A stretch of DNA of 56,855 nucleotides, taken from NCBI GenBank assembly GCA_052390515.1, contig JBQTGV010000035.1, positions 1 to 56,855 on the forward strand. The letters are read 5' to 3'. The stretch is from Candidatus Eiseniibacteriota bacterium. GTDB lineage: Bacteria; ARS69. The notes under the pieces were generated by a model. It saw only the letters and a list, made by a program, of their open reading frames with translations. It did not search any database and was not told where the DNA came from. How positions within the stretch are numbered: the first letter of the stretch is position 1; every line of letters starts with the position of its first letter. The position numbers and the translations under genes were made by a program. Shown here piece after piece: positions 25,439 through 33,697 of the stretch.

Positions 25439-26029
25439 TCAGCGCGTCCGCCTCGTCGTCCCCTGAGCGTTCGGTCCATGGCCCACCTGACGATACGAGA
25501 TCCGCAGCGTGCCGCCCGTCACGTCCAGCCCGGCGGCGCGGTCCAGGGCCATCCCCTCCCCGGCAAACGACGGAACGCTGAGCAGGAAACCGTCGGCGAA
25601 GACTCCGTCCTCCAGGACGTCCTTCATCATGCCGGTGACGTCGATGGTCGCAGTCCCGGGTGTACTGAAGTCGACCGCCGCGCGGCTCCCGAGGTTCTCC
25701 TCGACGTCCCCGCCCGCCGCGCTCCATCCGGTGCTCCAGTCAGCGCCGCTCGTGGTCCACGTCGTGGTCACCGGGTAGACGATCAGCTCCTGCGTCTTGG
25801 CCGAGGCCACCGCGGAGTACGGGAACTCCAGGACGGCGCGAGAGAGGACGGCGTTCGTCGGCAGCGACAGCGTCTCGTGCCGGAACAGGGCGCGGGCCTC
25901 TCCCTTGCCGTTGTCGATCATGGTGTAGTCGATGAGCCCCACCTTCACCTCGCCGCCGACCGCGATGGACTGTATGCCGACACACGCGACTACGGTGAGC
26001 AGCGGAAGCCTGCCATGCTTGCGTCTCAT
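25439..26029 (-). CDS. Secreted DNRLRE-like domain protein
   Basis: Signal peptide; 'RALFRH..LSLPTNAVLSRAVL...YPVTTTW...WSAAGGD...IDVT'; ATGA-coupled to the upstream gene. Confidence 0.6.
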   Translation of the reverse strand: MRRKHGRLPLLTVVACVGIQSIAVGGEVKVGLIDYTMIDNGKGEARALFRHETLSLPTNAVLSRAVLEFPYSAVASAKTQELIVYPVTTTWTTSGADWSTGWSAAGGDVEENLGSRAAVDFSTPGTATIDVTGMMKDVLEDGVFADGFLLSVPSFAGEGMALDRAAGLDVTGGTLRISYRQVGHGPNAQGTTRRTR

Positions 26030-27378
26030 CGGTAACCCTCCTTGATGGCTCCCCAGGACAACGGCCTGAGCGAGACGGGTCCGCAGCCCTCGCCGAACGC
26101 GCCGATCTGGCCGCAGCCGAGCGAGTGCGCGGGGAGGCACGGCGAGTCTCTGGACACCGTCAGATTATCGTTGTCCGGATCGCAGTAGAGCGGATCGATA
26201 ACGCGATCTGAACTCGAGAGCGAGAAGCCCGTGACGTCTCCTGATGCGTTGTCCCAGAAGACGTTGCAAGTGGACACGACCGCCCCCCCGAACGCTTCCA
26301 CGACCGGGGATCCAAGAGATTCCGTGAACACGTTGTTCCGGAGCGTCGTAGTCAGGAGAGTGGCAATGGCCATCGCCGCTCCCGCCGATCCATCGCTATC
26401 GCTCACACTGCACTGATGGAACGTGTTCCTCTCGACGAGACTGAGACCGTCGAGCAGCAGAACTGCACCCCCGACTGAGCCAGAGGGTCCATTCCCTTGA
26501 CACCGGACGAATGTGTTGTCAGTGACCGTCACAGTCGTGAAATGGTCTGGATTCAGCGCAATCGCACCGCCGCCGAACATCGACTGGCTATCCTCGAACC
26601 GGCACCCGTCGATCGTCACGGAGGAGTAGCCACTTCCAACCACCTGGATGCTTCCTGCGCTGTTCGTCGAGGTATTCCCCTTAAACGTGCAGTCTTGAAT
26701 CGCAACCGTGTACACTGGGGTGCTCGACTGTGTGGAAACGAAGAAAGGACCCTCACACCCTTGCACGATCCCGCCGATCACCGTGACGCTCGAGTTCGTG
26801 GACGCGATCGCACCGCCTCCAACGGCGTCGCAGTCATAGAACTCGCAGTTCAGAACGGTGATGGTGCACCTATATGGAGACAAGGCAGCGTCTGTCCCCT
26901 GGAAGACGCAGCTCTTGACCGTCATCTGCTGACACGTGCTGAGATCCATCCCCCTTCCCTGGGCGGTGGCGGGCGGCGTCCCCGTCAACGTGAACCCGTC
27001 CACCGTCACGGGTTGCGTGAGCTGCGCTCCCACGACCACGATGCCAGCGCCCACGATGACGTCCTGACTTAGGTCCAGGATCGTCACTCGCGGGCCCGCT
27101 TCGCTCACCAGCGCCACACCGTCGACCAGGAAGGCAAGTGAAGTGATCTCGAAGGGTGGCGTCCCGCGCGTCTCAGCCACGGTGTAGGTGCCCGGCGCCA
27201 CCAGGACCGTGTCACCCGCTGACGACGCATCCAGCGCCGCATTGATCGTCGGGTACAGCGCCGGTACCTGGCGTACGATGGCCGCCGCGATCGTCGGGAC
27301 ACAGATCCCAAGCCCGGCGAGCAGGCTGGCCACCGTATGACAGCAGTGGAACCACTTTCCCTGCTCTCGCGTCCTCAT
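26026..27378 (-). CDS. Secreted right-handed beta-helix protein with C-terminal PVSL..SWGAIKEGY tail
   Basis: 'VPALYPTINAALDASSAGDTVLVAPGTY', repeated GGAI/C.F..N turns, 'DPLYCD...SPC...IGAFGEGC'. Confidence 0.8.
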   Translation of the reverse strand: MRTREQGKWFHCCHTVASLLAGLGICVPTIAAAIVRQVPALYPTINAALDASSAGDTVLVAPGTYTVAETRGTPPFEITSLAFLVDGVALVSEAGPRVTILDLSQDVIVGAGIVVVGAQLTQPVTVDGFTLTGTPPATAQGRGMDLSTCQQMTVKSCVFQGTDAALSPYRCTITVLNCEFYDCDAVGGGAIASTNSSVTVIGGIVQGCEGPFFVSTQSSTPVYTVAIQDCTFKGNTSTNSAGSIQVVGSGYSSVTIDGCRFEDSQSMFGGGAIALNPDHFTTVTVTDNTFVRCQGNGPSGSVGGAVLLLDGLSLVERNTFHQCSVSDSDGSAGAAMAIATLLTTTLRNNVFTESLGSPVVEAFGGAVVSTCNVFWDNASGDVTGFSLSSSDRVIDPLYCDPDNDNLTVSRDSPCLPAHSLGCGQIGAFGEGCGPVSLRPLSWGAIKEGYR

Positions 27379-30300
27379 CGCGCCAACCTCACGAGCTTCG
27401 TGACTCGAGTGATGTTACCCGCGCGCAGTCGAACGAAGTACGCTCCCGAGCCTACGGACAGCCCAGAGCCGTTCCGCCCGTTCCAGGGGAGGACGTACAC
27501 GCCACCCGTCATGTACTCATCGGCGAGCTGCGCCACACGCTGCCCGAGAATGTTGAACACTTCCAGTGTGACGTGAGCGCCCGGGGACTCCACTCCGAAG
27601 CGCAGCTCGACGCGATCCAGGAACGGCGTCGGAGCCCCCGGGAAGAGCTCCGTCCGCGCTGCCTCACTACTCAGCCGAGTCGCGTCGGCGCCGTCGCCCG
27701 CCGCGGCGTCGGGCGGCGCCGACTGCCTTCCAGACACACTTCCTCCACCGCACGCCCCATTGGTAGTAAGCGGGGGATCCACAGCGACTCCGCCCGGAGC
27801 CGTGGTGCTCATCCGCGCAGTGATGGCCGGCACGTTGGTCACGATAGTCGACACCAGCCCGGACTTCTCGGCCCACGTGTTGTTGATCGCCGCCAGGTCC
27901 ATCGCGTTTACGGCATCGAGTTCCTCCACGAACTTCGAGTCGTCCAGCGGCACGACCGCCACTTCCAGGAAGTTGTCGCGCTTGAGGGTGATCGCGGCAA
28001 CACCACCCCCCGCGCTCTGCCCGTTGTGCTCGACATGGATGATGGGGTGCGGATCGGTCCATGTCGTTGCATTGAACCGGTTCTCAATCAGGTCCACGAC
28101 GCTTCCCGGTGTAGTTCCGTTGCTGCGGAACCAGACCGCCTGACGACAGGAGTCGACGGCGTTGCACTCGAATCGTATACCGGCAGACTGGTCCGCGGAG
28201 AACGCAGGTCCGCTCAACAGCTTGAAGTCGTTTCCAGCAACGAGAACCTGCCGGCTTCCTGGCCGGCAGGAGTTGAGGAACGTGAAGCCAGCGCGCTCGA
28301 TTGGGCTCGCTTCCCCCAGACCGCGCACCACGTTGTTCTCGATGTACAGCGTCTCGGTCCCATCGGGTGGCAGGAACGTGCACCAGTTCAGGTTGTCCCG
28401 TATGACGACTGCGGCGCCGTCCCGTGGCGTGCCATCCACCGTCAGCGTGTCTCGTTGAATACGGCCCGCCACGCACTTCTCGATGAACACCCCGTCATCG
28501 CCAAGGAGGGGATTCAGGAACGTCGCCATGGGACGGTCGATCGTGCAGTCCACGACAGTAGCCCCAGTCCCGTAGCCCTCGAGCATCCATACGCCGATGT
28601 CGGCCCAGGCCGTGATCCGCGAGTTCTTGAGCGTCGGTCCGTTGGGGTAGTAGAAGAAGATGGAGTTGGCCGCGTCGCTGATCCTCGCCCAGTCGATCAC
28701 GCTGGCACCGCTGGACCAGTCCATGTACACGCCGCCCCAGTCGTTTCCACTCTTCGTCCTCGTCTCCGAGTAGATGCGGACTCGGTTGCCGGACGTGCCG
28801 CTCGTGTTGAGCGTGCCCTGAACGATGAGATCGACTTTGCCGGGGTCGCCAATGGCAACACCGCCCACGTTGTACTCCGACAAAGACAGGTTCGCCGCGA
28901 CGACGTACGTGGCAGCGTTCAGCGACCACGTCTTCTCGAACGGCACCACGACGTCCGTGCTGTCGAGGTAAATGTGAATCGGGTTTGCCGGATTCGCACC
29001 GAGACTCAGGAAGTTCACGTCTTTGATCTGCGGCGCTGCCAGGCGCTCGAGGGATATGGCCTTGTCGGCACCCTCCATCTCCAGGTTCTCGAGGGAACTC
29101 GTCGCCACGGGCACCTGCTTGAAGAAGAAGCCGTACCCGGCGCCGACGGTCGTGTAGTCCTCGACGTGTCGGATGCCGTACCACAGCGAGTTCACGGGGT
29201 CCCCGGGAGCATGGTTCGAAGTGATCGCTCCACGCGCCCCCGCCGGATCCCCGGCGTCGAGCGTCCCCTTGACGATGAGTTCGCAGTCCGTCGACGTGCC
29301 CAGGTTGGCGGCGTCGCTGTCCTTCGTGAATCCGAGCCGCCAGCCTCCGGGAAGCACCAGTGTTTCACCCACCCCAATCTCGAGGTCGCGGTCGAGACAG
29401 ACGTCGCTCTGATTGCTCTGGAATGCCACCTTGCCCGAGAACTGGTTGAAGTAGGTCGAGGTGGGATTGTTCGCCAGACTGCTCGCCGCAGCGCCTTCTA
29501 GCGACAGTGCCCCACCCGCGTTGCGGATAGTCCCGCCGCTGGACAACGTCAGCACCTTGCTGAGGTTCGTTGTCCGCACCCCGTACCAGACGCCGCGCGG
29601 GTCTGTCGGGTCATCCGACCGCAGTACGCCGTCCAGATCCAGGTTGCCTCCGGCGATGTTCAGCTCACCACGGTTGGGATCCTTACCTCCATTGGTCGCA
29701 CCTGTCACGTCACGCATGGCGGTGAAGCCCACCACCTGCCCGGCGGGAATGGTCAGAGTACTGCCCGGGCCCACCGTGTAGTCACGATCCGTGGTGAGAT
29801 TGCACACGTTGTTCGAAAGCGTGACACCGGTCAGGCTCGCCAACGGAAAGCCGCTGGCCTCGTGGGCAATGGCGCCACGCGCGTGCGAGATCGTGCCACC
29901 CGTCGAAGTGAACATGGTGATGCTTGGCAGACGTACGCCGTACCAGTCTCCCGGGGAGGCCGTCCCGTTCGCCGATCGAAGGATGCTGCCCGACTCGAGG
30001 TGCAGGGTGCCGCCGGGCCGAATGACTACCTCTATACGGGAGGGGTCGATTCCGTCGAGGTCGGCTGCATCAAGGTTCGCCATGAACCCGACCGACGTGT
30101 TTGCCGGAACAACTCGATTCGTCGTCACCTCGACATCGCGATCGAACGTCACGTCGACGACGTTGTGCTGGAAAGTGATCCCTGGGATCCCGGCCTGTCC
30201 GCCGAGGTCGGGGAACACGGACTGGGAGAAGTTCAGGGCTCCGGATGCGTAGCGGAAGATGGTCCCGGTAACCGTGACAGCCCCTGCCGGTCCGACCTTG

Positions 30301-32251
30301 GCACCGTACCAGTCTCCCCCATTCGCTGCCGCCTCTTCACCAGCTTCGTCCGGCGAGCCGAGTGCACCGATATTGTGGGGGATCTCGTCATCACGAGACG
30401 ACGTGAAGAGCGCAGTAGCGGCGGGCCCCTCCGGGTAGCCGTTCAGCTCCAGTGCTCCATCGATCTGGAGCTCCACGAGATCAGGGAGCACTCCCGTGTG
30501 GAAGACATCCTGAAGTGCGGCGCACACGACTTGAGTCCCGGGGTCGAAGCGGAGGAGACTCCCGAACGGAATGACGATGTCCGACATGAGGGCGACCTTC
30601 CCTCTCCATATCATGCCGTCGGGGACGTGATATCCCTCGGGCGGGAGCGAGGGGCCGTCGTACCGAATCGTCACCGAGATCTCGCCGAGCCCGCTACCCG
30701 GATTCGTGACCCAGTGAATGTCGTGGAATGTCAGTCCGCTGTATACGCTCTGCTCCTGGCGCTTCGCGCAGTTCGCCGGATCGTTGTACGTCGTGGAGTT
30801 GTACCAGTACAGGTTCGTGTTCGGGTTCGTGTACGTCGACATGATCTCGACACCGCGCTCGCGGCGGAACTGATCGTCGTTGGAGGAGAAGAAGTGGAAC
30901 GTCTGCTCGTTGTACGAGAGTCTGTCGAAGCCCGCGACGGGGTCCGGAGCATGGGACGTCGTGTCCCACATCGCTCCGGCGAGCTCCGGCTCGACGAGGG
31001 GCGGGTAGCAACTCGACGCACCGGCCGAGGTCGTCCACGATCCACTGTACGTGCAGGCTGTCGTACAGTCGTCAAGTACCCGGAGCTTCTTGGCCACGTG
31101 GTAGATCATCAAGCCGCTGTTCTCGGGGTTGTCCAGGCAGTCGACGTTGCTCGCGAACATCGAGCCGGTGCTGTCGACACATTCCAGGATGAAGTATTGG
31201 TCCGGGTCGGCCGTCCGGACGACGGCAAAGCCGGCGTCACCATCCGTGTATACGTCGTTCAAGGTGATGGTCGTCTGCCCCCCGGGTGTCAGCGGCCCCG
31301 TGCCCGAACTTAGATCGTGGCCAGCTGTGGGTGTGATCCACCCGAACTCGTGCCGAAGGAAGGTAGACCAGCGGGGCGGGCCCATCTTGAGAGCCGTGAA
31401 TCCGTTCATCATGTCGTAGCGGTCCATGGCTCGGTTGTGCACCGGGTACTCCGGCACCGCGGCCGTGAGGTAGTGCCCGTACTCGTGTGCCAGGACCTCG
31501 ATTGCCGTCCAGTATCCGCGGCGTGGCGACGTCGGGTTGCAGCGGCAGGCGGGATCGACCGTGAGCGCCCCTCCGTCCACCTGCTTTCCGCTGAACGGCC
31601 ACTTCATCCCACCGTCCGTCGACACGAGCCAGTTGCTTGAGGTGTTCTGGAGCTGGCGGAACAACACGAAGACGAAGTCGACAACTCCATCGCCGGTCTC
31701 GTCCTGGTTCACCGCATCCCAAACGTCGAAGGGTGCGAAGCTGAATCCTGGATCAGCGTCGACAACGTCAATGACGTCGTTCATCGCTTGCGTCATGCCG
31801 CCGGAGTTCAGGTAGCCGGCGATGGTGGTGAGGTAGACGACCTTGGGGTAGACGGAACCCTCCAGCAGATGCGCGGGCTGCTGGCTGGGCGAGCCCCGCG
31901 ACATCAGCGCGAAGTAATCCGTCAGGCTCGAGTCGATCGAGGTGGTCCAAGTCGACTCGAGCAGTTCGCTTGCCCATGAGGGCACAGGTGTTCCGGGACC
32001 CGACGAGGCTGGCCACGGGTCCGACGTGCAAGCGGACGCGACGGGGTTCTGATCACTGAATTCCGCGAGGATGAGCAGCGCCTTGATGTGAGCGTCCGGT
32101 GGAAGGCTGGTTATCGGAGGTGCTGACGTTCCGCAGATTCCGTCGCCCGGCGCGGCCGTGCTCTCGACCGGTAGCATGGCCACGACAACGAGCAGAGCAA
32201 GTTGGAAGGAAGGAAGGAAGGAAGGAAGGAAGGAAGCGAGAGCCGAGCCAT
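27375..32251 (-). CDS. Large secreted M6 (immune inhibitor A)-like metalloprotease with internal repeats, beta-helix and FlgD-Ig tail; likely start separated from the ORF body by an SSR frameshift
   Basis: 'ALLILAEFSD', 'SLTDYF..MS.G', 'DFVFVLF', HEYGH (31473-31487), 'YDMM.G...P..S...R.EFGW', 'QYFILE'. ATG 32251 has an SD but is out of frame; the in-frame GTG 32291 has no SD. Confidence 0.8.
32204..32236. repeat. Tetranucleotide microsatellite (GGAA)8G, i.e. C(TTCC)8 on the coding strand
   Basis: 33-nt perfect tract counted directly. Confidence 0.97.
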
Positions 32252-32434
32252 CGTAGTTTCCCCCTCTCGAGTTCAGACACCCACGCCGCACCGTGAACGG
32301 TGCCAGCGCCTGCGCTGCTCAACCTCGCGACAGGCTCCGAGGGGGGATCGCCACGGTGGGTCCCGGGGGGGATTCCGGGAGCGGTGCTCTCGAAGCGGAG
32401 AAGGCTCTCCCCTGTCGCTCTGCTGACGGGTTCA

Positions 32435-32464
32435 ACGCTACCCCATCGATGATCGTCGTTTCAA
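32435..32464 (-). promoter_or_regulatory. Putative sigma70 promoter of the protease cluster
   Basis: TTGAAA-N18-TAGCGT. Confidence 0.45.
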
Positions 32465-32482
32465 GGGGCTTGGACGGGGCCA

Positions 32483-33697
32483 TCATTCACCTCCGCCTGG
32501 GCCATGCTCGCCTCGATCCACCCAGCGCACTTTGCCGAAGGCGGCGCGCCCGCCCTCCGGGGTCCGATACGGACTCAGGAGCTCCCAGACGATCTCCCCG
32601 CGCGGGGTGATCTCGACGGCCCGCCCCGCATCCGACTCCGCGAGCAGCGTATTGCCGTTTGGCAGGCGCTGAACCGATCCCTTGCTCGCGGAGTAGAAAC
32701 CCGGCGGCGGCTCGGCTCTCCACTCCCAGGTGACGGCCGGCACTGCCGGGTTCACTTCGACCGCCCGTGACCAACCCCGAACCAAGCCGTTGTCGAAGAG
32801 CAGAACGCGCCCACTGGCGAGCAACTGGGCATCGTGAGCGCCGTCGAGGATGTCCCGCCCCCAGGCCCACACCACCTCGCGACGGTCGACGTCGAAGAGC
32901 GCAATCCGGTCCTGGTGGCGGAACGTGACGAAGGCGAAGCGCGACGGCGGCCGATTGACCAGCCCGAAGCTCGCTGCACTCTCGAGCCACTCGATCGAGT
33001 TGGCGTGAAACAGATCCACCCACTTCTCGCCACCCAGGTCGTTGATGTTGCCGAGCTGCGGCGGGAAGATGTCCTCGTGTCCGGCCACCGCATCGAGGAA
33101 GCCCCAGGACTCGAGCAACTCGCCCGTGCCGGCATCCAGGATGGCGATCCCGTCGTCCCGCGTGTCGATATCCGGATGGATCCCGGGAATCCGGCGCCGC
33201 TCGAAGGTGAGCACCGCAACTCTCTCTTCGGGGAGCAACGCGGCGTCGTGATGCGCGTTCATCTTCCGCTTCCAGCGAGGACTGCTGTCTCGATCGATCC
33301 GCGCCACGTAGCGCGTGCTGTCCGGGATCCGAGGCACACCGCCCACCTCGCCACTGCCCGAAGGTGTTGCGCCGATCACGAGGAGGTCACCGTCGTCGAT
33401 CAGCTCCGCGTGCTCCCAGATGGCGCTGGGTGCGTGCGTCCACATGTGGATGACGGCGCCGGATGCGTCGATCAGCTCTGCCCGGCTCAGGGTCGGGACA
33501 ACGTAGAAGCGGTAGCCCGGGCAGGTGAGGTCCTGAGCGTGGCGGACCACTCCGGAGCGCGGATCGCGGTCCTCCGTCATAGAAGTGTACGGGAGCGATC
33601 GCAAGGCATCCCGCTGGCGATCGGTATCAGGGCTTCGCTCGCCGCTGCACGCCGCCATCCATGCGGCGACGACCAGGCACGCGCTTGCTGCCCTCAT
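32483..33697 (-). CDS. Arylsulfotransferase (ASST)-family lipoprotein
   Basis: Lipobox MAAC; 'LRSLPY', 'AHHDA', 'DLFHANSI', 'HDAQLL..G.VLLFDNG', 'GSVQRLPNGNTL'. Confidence 0.8.
   Translation of the reverse strand: MRAASACLVVAAWMAACSGERSPDTDRQRDALRSLPYTSMTEDRDPRSGVVRHAQDLTCPGYRFYVVPTLSRAELIDASGAVIHMWTHAPSAIWEHAELIDDGDLLVIGATPSGSGEVGGVPRIPDSTRYVARIDRDSSPRWKRKMNAHHDAALLPEERVAVLTFERRRIPGIHPDIDTRDDGIAILDAGTGELLESWGFLDAVAGHEDIFPPQLGNINDLGGEKWVDLFHANSIEWLESAASFGLVNRPPSRFAFVTFRHQDRIALFDVDRREVVWAWGRDILDGAHDAQLLASGRVLLFDNGLVRGWSRAVEVNPAVPAVTWEWRAEPPPGFYSASKGSVQRLPNGNTLLAESDAGRAVEITPRGEIVWELLSPYRTPEGGRAAFGKVRWVDRGEHGPGGGE

Follow-up and report, generated by a model that had tools for sequence, protein, structure and literature searches.

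A (TTCC)8 repeat as a candidate phase-variable switch in the signal-peptide-coding region of a large secreted protease gene from Candidatus Eiseniibacteriota

The contig JBQTGV010000035.1 from Candidatus Eiseniibacteriota bacterium (GenBank assembly GCA_052390515.1), hereafter called the window and 56,855 nt long, carries a gene for a very large putative secreted metalloprotease with a perfect run of eight TTCC units at its 5′ end, and the question raised by this locus is whether the run serves as an on/off switch of the gene. The original prediction took it for a contingency locus assembled in the OFF state. The window is the entire contig C35 of a 223-contig assembly (G000) comprising 4,266,055 bases with a GC content of 70%, 95% completeness and 2.5% contamination. 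As judged from the sequence, the tract is likely to be a slipped-strand contingency locus made of a simple sequence repeat (SSR) and situated in the signal-peptide-coding 5′ end of a gene for an M6-like protease secreted by the type IX secretion system (T9SS). The elements of the locus are the following:

32204..32236, minus strand: perfect C(TTCC)8 tetranucleotide tract of 33 nt, read from the sequence, the candidate slipped-strand switch
32260..32268, minus strand: Shine-Dalgarno (SD) sequence GAGAGGGGG, 8 nt 5′ of ATG 32251
32249..32251, minus strand: ATG, the start type usual for the family, not in the protease frame at 8 units
32111..32251, minus strand: dead-end open reading frame (ORF) of 46 codons from ATG 32251 in the assembled 8-unit state, taken from the ORF list
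32289..32291, minus strand: in-frame GTG without SD, a possible weak alternative start allowing leaky expression, from the ORF list and the sequence
32154..32203, minus strand: remaining signal-peptide coding region in the protease frame, hydrophobic core QLALLVVVAML followed by PVESTA

The reading frames around the tract were found as originally predicted. The SD, read on the minus strand at 32268-32260, is separated from ATG 32251 by the 8-nt spacer AAACTACG, and another 12 nt (GCTCGGCTCTCG) lie between the ATG and the tract, for which Tandem Repeats Finder gave a period of 4, 8.2 copies and 100% matches. The large ORF 27375..32291 on the minus strand consists of 1638 codons beginning with GTG and lies in frame +2 relative to ATG 32251 at 8 units, so that adding 4 nt or removing 8 nt puts the ATG into the protease frame, making 9, 6 or 3 units the in-frame lengths. 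The predicted dead-end frame from the ATG is present in the ORF list, and GTG 32291, which is the sole upstream in-frame canonical start of the protease ORF, is indeed devoid of an SD, no GGAGG-like or other SD-like run being found in the 20 nt 5′ of it. The hydrophobic core and the small-residue cleavage motif encoded in the protease frame thus reach a start codon only via the tract (from the ATG with 9, 6 or 3 units) or from GTG 32291; the likely cleavage site after PVESTA was judged by eye from the small residues at −3/−1. The public gene call of the window protease is 1600 amino acids (aa) long and starts at M39 within the hydrophobic core, which leaves the called protein without a signal peptide.

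The proposed mechanism would run as follows. Translation would start at the SD-preceded ATG 32251, and with 3, 6, 9 or 12 units its frame would cross the tract as (LPSF)n within the signal peptide and continue into the protease; as the repeat peptide leaves together with the cleaved signal peptide, in-frame length changes would cost nothing. With the 8 units assembled here the ribosome would stop after 46 codons without making any protease, the translationally coupled beta-helix gene at 26026-27378 would probably not be made either, and the SD-less GTG 32291 would give a trace product at most. Slipped-strand mispairing during replication would add or drop whole units and flip the state reversibly, presumably leaving length variants in the population.

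The first line of evidence comes from the scan for perfect SSRs, which was taken over all 4,266,055 bases of the genome. Tetranucleotide tracts of at least 7 units occur three times, namely as (TTCC)8 in the window, (CTCA)10 at 17585-17624 of contig C152 and (CTCA)7 at 19596-19623 of contig C5, while no tracts of 5 or 6 units were found in the whole genome and those of 4 units account for eight entries. The sole long dinucleotide tract is (CT)33 at 22084-22149 of C207, and there is one heptamer repeat on C221. At 70% GC the chance of an 8-unit tetranucleotide tract is about 1e-6 per genome by a rough estimate made without a dedicated tool. The (TTCC)8 tract is far beyond chance, and the three tetranucleotide tracts and the long dinucleotide tract all stand at the 5′ ends of protease genes.

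Besides the window, protease paralogs were located on C5, C152, C207 and C143 by TBLASTN with the catalytic domain and by whole-genome searches. Since the end of C152 and the start of C143 are the two inverted ends of one insertion sequence (IS), present in several copies, these two contigs represent a single gene interrupted by it, with C143 holding the 3′ part, and the paralogs number four in all. In each of the four, a G-rich SD is followed by the ATG, a non-triplet SSR separates this ATG from the signal-peptide core, and the ATG is out of the protease frame, which one added unit would restore. The in-frame lengths would be 5, 8 or 11 units at the CTCA loci and 31 or 34 units at the CT locus. 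Of the five longest non-triplet SSRs in the 4.27 Mb, these tracts make up four and fall within a target of a few hundred bases, and the presence of three different repeat units in four paralogs points to independent origin or turnover. In the paralog on C207 the protease frame is closed upstream by a TGA that overlaps the ATG, and the first in-frame canonical start 3′ of the tract falls beyond the AQA cleavage motif, so no alternative start can supply a signal peptide. The protease ORFs stay open over 1310-1647 codons, which speaks against decay of the genes, and the genome encodes MutS1 and MutL, which argues for localised hypermutability and not for a general mutator state.

The two CTCA paralogs share a 5′ cassette. 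Between about −160 and +190 relative to the ATG, the C152 and C5 sequences are 92-98% identical in most 50-nt windows, compared with 76% in the 50-nt window holding the tract and 34-68% in the flanks outside the cassette; within these near-identical cassettes the CTCA tract has 10 units in C152 versus 7 in C5. The leader of the window gene is not closely similar to those of C152 and C5, and what is common to all three is the SD, the spacing and one further motif:

32336..32347, minus strand: leader motif TCCCCCCTCGGA, complementary to the SD and predicted in folds to close a hairpin sequestering it

The motif is situated about 85 nt upstream and closes the predicted hairpin of about 85 nt over the SD in all three folds (the window gene and the two CTCA paralogs, L012 and L006), the z-scores of the leader folds, from −0.96 to −1.84, being not significant overall. 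Such a hairpin, as modelled, may provide translational control layered on the repeat switch.

The family was then followed through a comparison set of 12 species genomes of the same GTDB phylum, all from one family. Four of the 11 other genomes contain the protease family, with 11 genes in total, the 5′ ends of which were all read. Each of the 11 has an SD of the GGAGG or GGGGG type 5-8 nt before the ATG opening the signal peptide, and seven have a G/C run of 8-11 nt in the 5′ coding region:

G001 C2: C9 run, in frame
G001 C3: C9 run, in frame
G007 C3: C9 run, in frame
G007 C1: G8 run, in frame
G007 C20: G11 run, out of frame
G007 C31: G9 run, out of frame
G008 C73: C8 run, out of frame; the gene is near-identical to the G001 C3 gene (C9) and comes from another species

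In the L008 gene of G004 there is a frameshift in the signal peptide without a long SSR, and three of the 11 genes have no SSR in their coding 5′ end, one of which carries (GCACC)5 about 160 nt 5′ of its start. As for the background, G007 has 13 distinct G/C runs of at least 9 nt, three of which are in the 5′ ends of family genes, and G001 has 21, two of which are so placed. When the five genomes are pooled, 11 of 15 family genes possess a 5′ SSR and eight are out of frame, with seven of these eight breaks located at the SSR. The gene with (GCACC)5 is the closest homologue, L002 (G007:C1, 43% identity), which has a normal in-frame signal peptide; the repeat may be a promoter-region SSR.

Other alleles or orthologues were also sought more widely. 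A homologous-protein search with residues 1-430 returned two proteins, one of which is the window's own gene call and the other a relative. Metagenome contigs searched with the protein gave 36 stretches, none of them a relative, and searched with the alignment gave at least 598 stretches with one weak relative among the matches listed, while the alignment search of genome contigs gave at least 603 stretches with eight relatives among the matches listed.

What the gene encodes was analysed at the domain level. The protein and its downstream partner are laid out as follows:

27375..32153, minus strand: mature protease with an M6/InhA-like catalytic domain, a beta-helix region and a T9SS C-terminal sorting domain
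31473..31487, minus strand: HEYGH zinc-binding motif (residues 269-273), its H, E and H unchanged across 11 family sequences
27390..27584, minus strand: T9SS type A sorting domain (Por_Secre_tail)
26026..27378, minus strand: downstream gene for a beta-helix protein of 450 aa, its ATG overlapping the protease stop (ATGA)

The HEYGH motif is carried by the N-terminal approximately 385 residues following the signal region. The M6 domain model TIGR03296 matches weakly (E-value 6e-7, 29.6 bits against a cut-off of 110.8), and Pfam Peptidase_M6 was not found in the window protease, with three of the 11 family members matching it at a best E-value of 1.9e-6. When the family profile was compared with the PDB, the best match was immune inhibitor A (4yu5, E-value 6.6e-6). 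The AlphaFold (AF2) model (pLDDT 71.4, pTM 0.79) had InhA2 as its top four Foldseek matches with E-values from 1e-6 to 1.9e-5 and TMq of 0.46-0.48, the best being 4yu6_A (E-value 1e-6, probability 1.0, TMq 0.48). At residues 1570-1634 the sorting domain model TIGR04183 reaches 25.8 bits against a cut-off of 23, and the genome as a whole has 143 T9SS sorting-domain matches over the cut-off as well as a SprA homologue (521 bits summed). The giant secreted metalloprotease of the original prediction is borne out by the HEYGH motif, the InhA-like fold match and the sorting domain above its cut-off, and 'large secreted M6-like metalloprotease' is a fair name, although by the curated threshold the protein does not belong to M6.

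As the ATG of the beta-helix gene overlaps the protease stop, this gene is probably co-expressed and co-switched with the protease. Homologues of this gene of about 450 aa are also found 3′ of the other three protease paralogs. The partner genes are located at C207:16918-18204, C5:13935-15260, C143:9898-11139 and C126:11629-12894, and others are on C177, C189, C26 and C58; the module of cargo plus partner recurs, a beta-helix gene being also present 3′ of several other T9SS cargo genes. On the other side of the protease gene, the upstream neighbour at 32483-33697 on the minus strand codes for an arylsulfotransferase-like protein, and the consensus scan revealed no sigma-70-type promoter in the 231-nt gap between this gene and ATG 32251. 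No sigma-70 promoter or terminator was found by consensus scanning of 32100-32700, and the Rfam scan of 32100-32600 gave one chance match of the miRNA type (E-value 0.23).

In the (CTCA)10 paralog (C152:17582-18570 and C143:15287-15411, locus L012) the IS cuts the gene just after HEYGHHL. It has inverted ends of the GTGTCCTGTTTGGTTAGTT type flanked by CTAG, and these ends recur with 100% identity at the ends of C190, C112 and C69 and of C163, C156, C72 and C52, which indicates a multi-copy IS breaking the assembly.

Several further repeats were noted elsewhere in the genome. At C126:7931-7941 (L040) a C11 run stands between the hexamers TTGACG and TAGATT with a 19-nt spacer, about 150 nt 5′ of the SD-ATG of a 1150-aa T9SS cargo protein composed of a beta-helix and an FlgD_ig tail and having a beta-helix partner of its own; this run may be a switch of the promoter-spacer type. 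Two G11 runs are located at C98:11400-11410 on the minus strand and at C121:31250-31260, the former just 5′ of the SD GAGGGGGGAAC and an ATG and within an inverted repeat able to pair with the SD. The heptamer repeat (CCGGCTC) at C221:853-899 (L045) has about 6.7 copies and lies about 20 nt past the end of a subtilase ORF (Peptidase_S8, E-value 9e-48).

The tract was also sought in four public sequencing runs, compared as assembled contigs with positions 32195-32245 masked in the comparison. Run X1, possibly the source sample, contains a fraction of 0.97 of the words, compared with 0.17 in X2 and next to none in X3 and X4. Two X1 contigs built with k=31 run out within the tract, both finishing in about 30 nt (k−1) of pure repeat. 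As the X1 contigs break four times in 4.5 kb, the tract included, and as a foreign (GGAA)n could break the graph in the same way, the break at the tract was counted as no evidence. X2, labelled a sediment metagenome, has pieces 85-95% alike, which indicates a relative; one of its contigs also ends near 32238.

Several observations weigh against a reversible on/off switch at this locus. The unit count of the tract comes from a single assembly in which the word depth is about 5.5-5.9. Because a product begun at the in-frame GTG 32291 would have the same hydrophobic core near its N-terminus, some protease may still be made from the 8-unit allele. Each of the four loci lacks one unit to be in frame, for which the chance is 1/81 if phases are random and 1/16 given that all are off, and this shared out-of-frame class may reflect an artefact or another mechanism. 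The 10 and 7 units of the two cassettes differ by exactly three, which keeps the frame, an outcome that selection on the existing frame would likewise produce. One paralog is disrupted by the IS, and the (CT)33 tract, lying 40 nt from a contig end, may be miscounted. When the two 5′ cassettes were compared as DNA with the 11 other genomes of the family, no orthologue was found and two short weak matches were obtained. The contingency-locus claim as a whole is nevertheless supported: it gains strongly from the SSRs in all four paralogs, from the cassette with 10 versus 7 units and from the relatives' G/C runs in both frame states, although GTG 32291 may make the off state incomplete. The 10 versus 7 units of the cassette and the C9 versus C8 pair of two species give indirect support to variation in tract length.

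One competing account has the gene expressed constitutively from the in-frame GTG 32291, with the tract as a low-complexity in-frame ASFLPSFLPSF stretch in a long n-region, with the SD-ATG irrelevant and the length fixed by selection. The frame is indeed open from this GTG across the tract into the hydrophobic core, an in-frame GTG is likewise present at −76 in the C152 and C5 genes, and the three-unit difference between their tracts keeps the GTG frame. However, neither GTG 32291 nor the −76 GTGs are preceded by an SD, while in these three genes the out-of-frame ATG has a strong SD at a distance of 8 nt; all 11 genes of the relatives start at an SD followed by ATG; the stop overlapping the ATG in C207 rules out an upstream in-frame start there; and three different perfect SSRs at the same spot in four paralogs would be left unexplained. 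The GC3/codon test on the 13 codons from GTG 32291 to the ATG (0.69 against a mean of 0.80, standard deviation 0.125) does not discriminate. Taken together, this makes a constitutive gene unlikely. A repeat locus that is real and was assembled with the wrong number of units, the dominant allele being in frame (for example with 9 units) and the gene on, is improbable as well. It would fit the low word depth of about 5.5-5.9, the four loci exactly one unit short, the X1 contig ends of about 30 nt of pure repeat, as would be expected if the repeat exceeded the word size or came in several lengths, and the position of (CT)33 at a contig end. It is countered by the reasoning that ordinary reads are much longer than tracts of 28, 33 and 40 nt, and by the four breaks of X1 in 4.5 kb, among which the one at the tract is not special and could be caused by another (GGAA)n. 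A collapse of the repeats to a given k-mer length was considered separately and rejected, since by simple reasoning tract lengths of 28, 33, 40 and 66 nt match no single word size.

If, instead, the frameshifts marked the early pseudogenisation of redundant protease paralogs, the IS in the C152 paralog, the signal-peptide frameshift of the G004 L008 gene without a long SSR and the eight out-of-frame genes among 15 in five genomes would find a ready explanation; yet seven of these eight frame breaks are exactly in a perfect 5′ SSR, the remaining 1310-1647 codons are free of stops with the catalytic H, E and H invariant, and without selection or continuing turnover perfect repeats of 7-33 units would be lost, so that decay of the family is regarded as very unlikely. 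Programmed slippage by one unit, by RNA polymerase or the ribosome, which would set a low expression level with the DNA unchanged, is given an equally small chance. All four loci need +1 unit, and tetranucleotide (frame +2) and dinucleotide (frame +1) tracts together fit a unit-wise slip and not a fixed −1/+1 frameshift, but the homopolymer loci of the relatives fall into both out-of-frame classes (G007 C20 needs −1 and G008 C73 needs +1), and the pattern is more simply explained if DNA slippage favours contraction or if the on state is selected against. Neither transcription nor translation is known to slip efficiently by a whole tetranucleotide unit. Slippage of SSRs is reportedly biased towards contraction in Haemophilus. 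The one-unit-short pattern could accordingly come from such a bias combined with selection against the on state, from a miscount or, least likely, from programmed slippage.

A slipped-strand switch in the signal-peptide-coding region remains the reading we prefer, and it has well-known counterparts. Contingency loci of Haemophilus influenzae include lic1, lic2, lgtC, the hgp genes and mod, with units such as CAAT, CCAA and AGTC. In the passages of PMC2651432 that bear on this layout, a perfect tetranucleotide tract just after the start codon sets the frame by its unit number, as it would here, several such loci occur per genome with paralogous gene sets included, and about 1e-4 unit changes per generation are given for tetranucleotide SSRs in H. 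influenzae. Unlike H. influenzae, the host studied here belongs to an uncultured, T9SS-rich environmental lineage that has 70% GC and encodes MutS and MutL, TTCC and CTCA serve as units, the targets are a family of secreted proteases of about 1300-1650 aa instead of lipopolysaccharide or adhesin genes, and the switching is a prediction from DNA sequence. The opa genes of Neisseria, a multi-copy family, carry (CTCTT)n in the signal-peptide coding region. As in the present case, in-frame length changes of the opa repeat are gone from the mature protein and the paralogs share an exchangeable conserved 5′ part; the difference is that opa involves a pentamer and small outer-membrane adhesins of a host-restricted pathogen, whereas here there are four paralogs with three units. 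In Helicobacter pylori, an organism that reportedly lacks MutS1 and MutL, oipA, sabA, sabB and hopZ have (CT)n in the 5′ signal-sequence region. The (CT)33 of C207, placed between the ATG and the AQA cleavage-site region, has the same layout, although the genome analysed here has MutS1 and MutL and the tract is much longer and located at a contig end. A promoter repeat of H. pylori sabA is the subject of PMC4081817. With respect to the protein, the window protease resembles InhA and peptidase family M6 in its HExxH catalytic domain and differs from InhA in its low identity of 14-16% and in having beta-helix repeats and a T9SS sorting domain joined to the catalytic part.

The layout itself is thus of the classical contingency-locus type and already known. 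The novelty is in the setting (an uncultured lineage with high GC and a rich T9SS complement), in the target (one family of giant secreted proteases with coupled beta-helix partners) and in an SSR type that differs between genera. SSR phase variation has been documented almost entirely in host-adapted pathogens. Statements in a 2025 review (PMC11868660) likewise describe the knowledge as centred on pathogens and anticipate gaps for soil and ocean bacteria. A literature search at the title and abstract level, directed also at Gemmatimonadota and at environmental bacteria, gave no paper on phase variation in this lineage or in such proteases.

A bolder view would treat the four paralogs as a T9SS-protease 'phasome', in which each has an exchangeable 5′ module consisting of a leader with an SD-sequestering hairpin, the SD-ATG, the SSR and the signal peptide, and in which the one-unit-short state is not a matter of chance, being either a programmed slip or the sign of costly public-good proteases poised one step from activation, with labour divided between producers and non-producers in the population. 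Taken as a whole, module included, this view is decidedly a long shot.

Under the preferred reading of a slipped-strand switch, the window locus is one of four switches, one per paralog, so that a population can hold mixed on/off combinations of secreted or surface enzymes. As a selective reason for switching, this points to bet-hedging in enzymes that are secreted or in proteins exposed at the surface, with cost, cheaters, phage or predators as possible drivers. The locus offers a countable example, with four repeat switches on one secreted-protease family and its beta-helix partners and with homopolymer versions in sister genera. Gene callers mis-start genes of this kind, as illustrated by the public call beginning inside the signal peptide. 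The number of units can be counted in metagenomic reads, which makes the question testable, and if the reading is true, bet-hedging over secreted or exposed proteins would take place outside any host.

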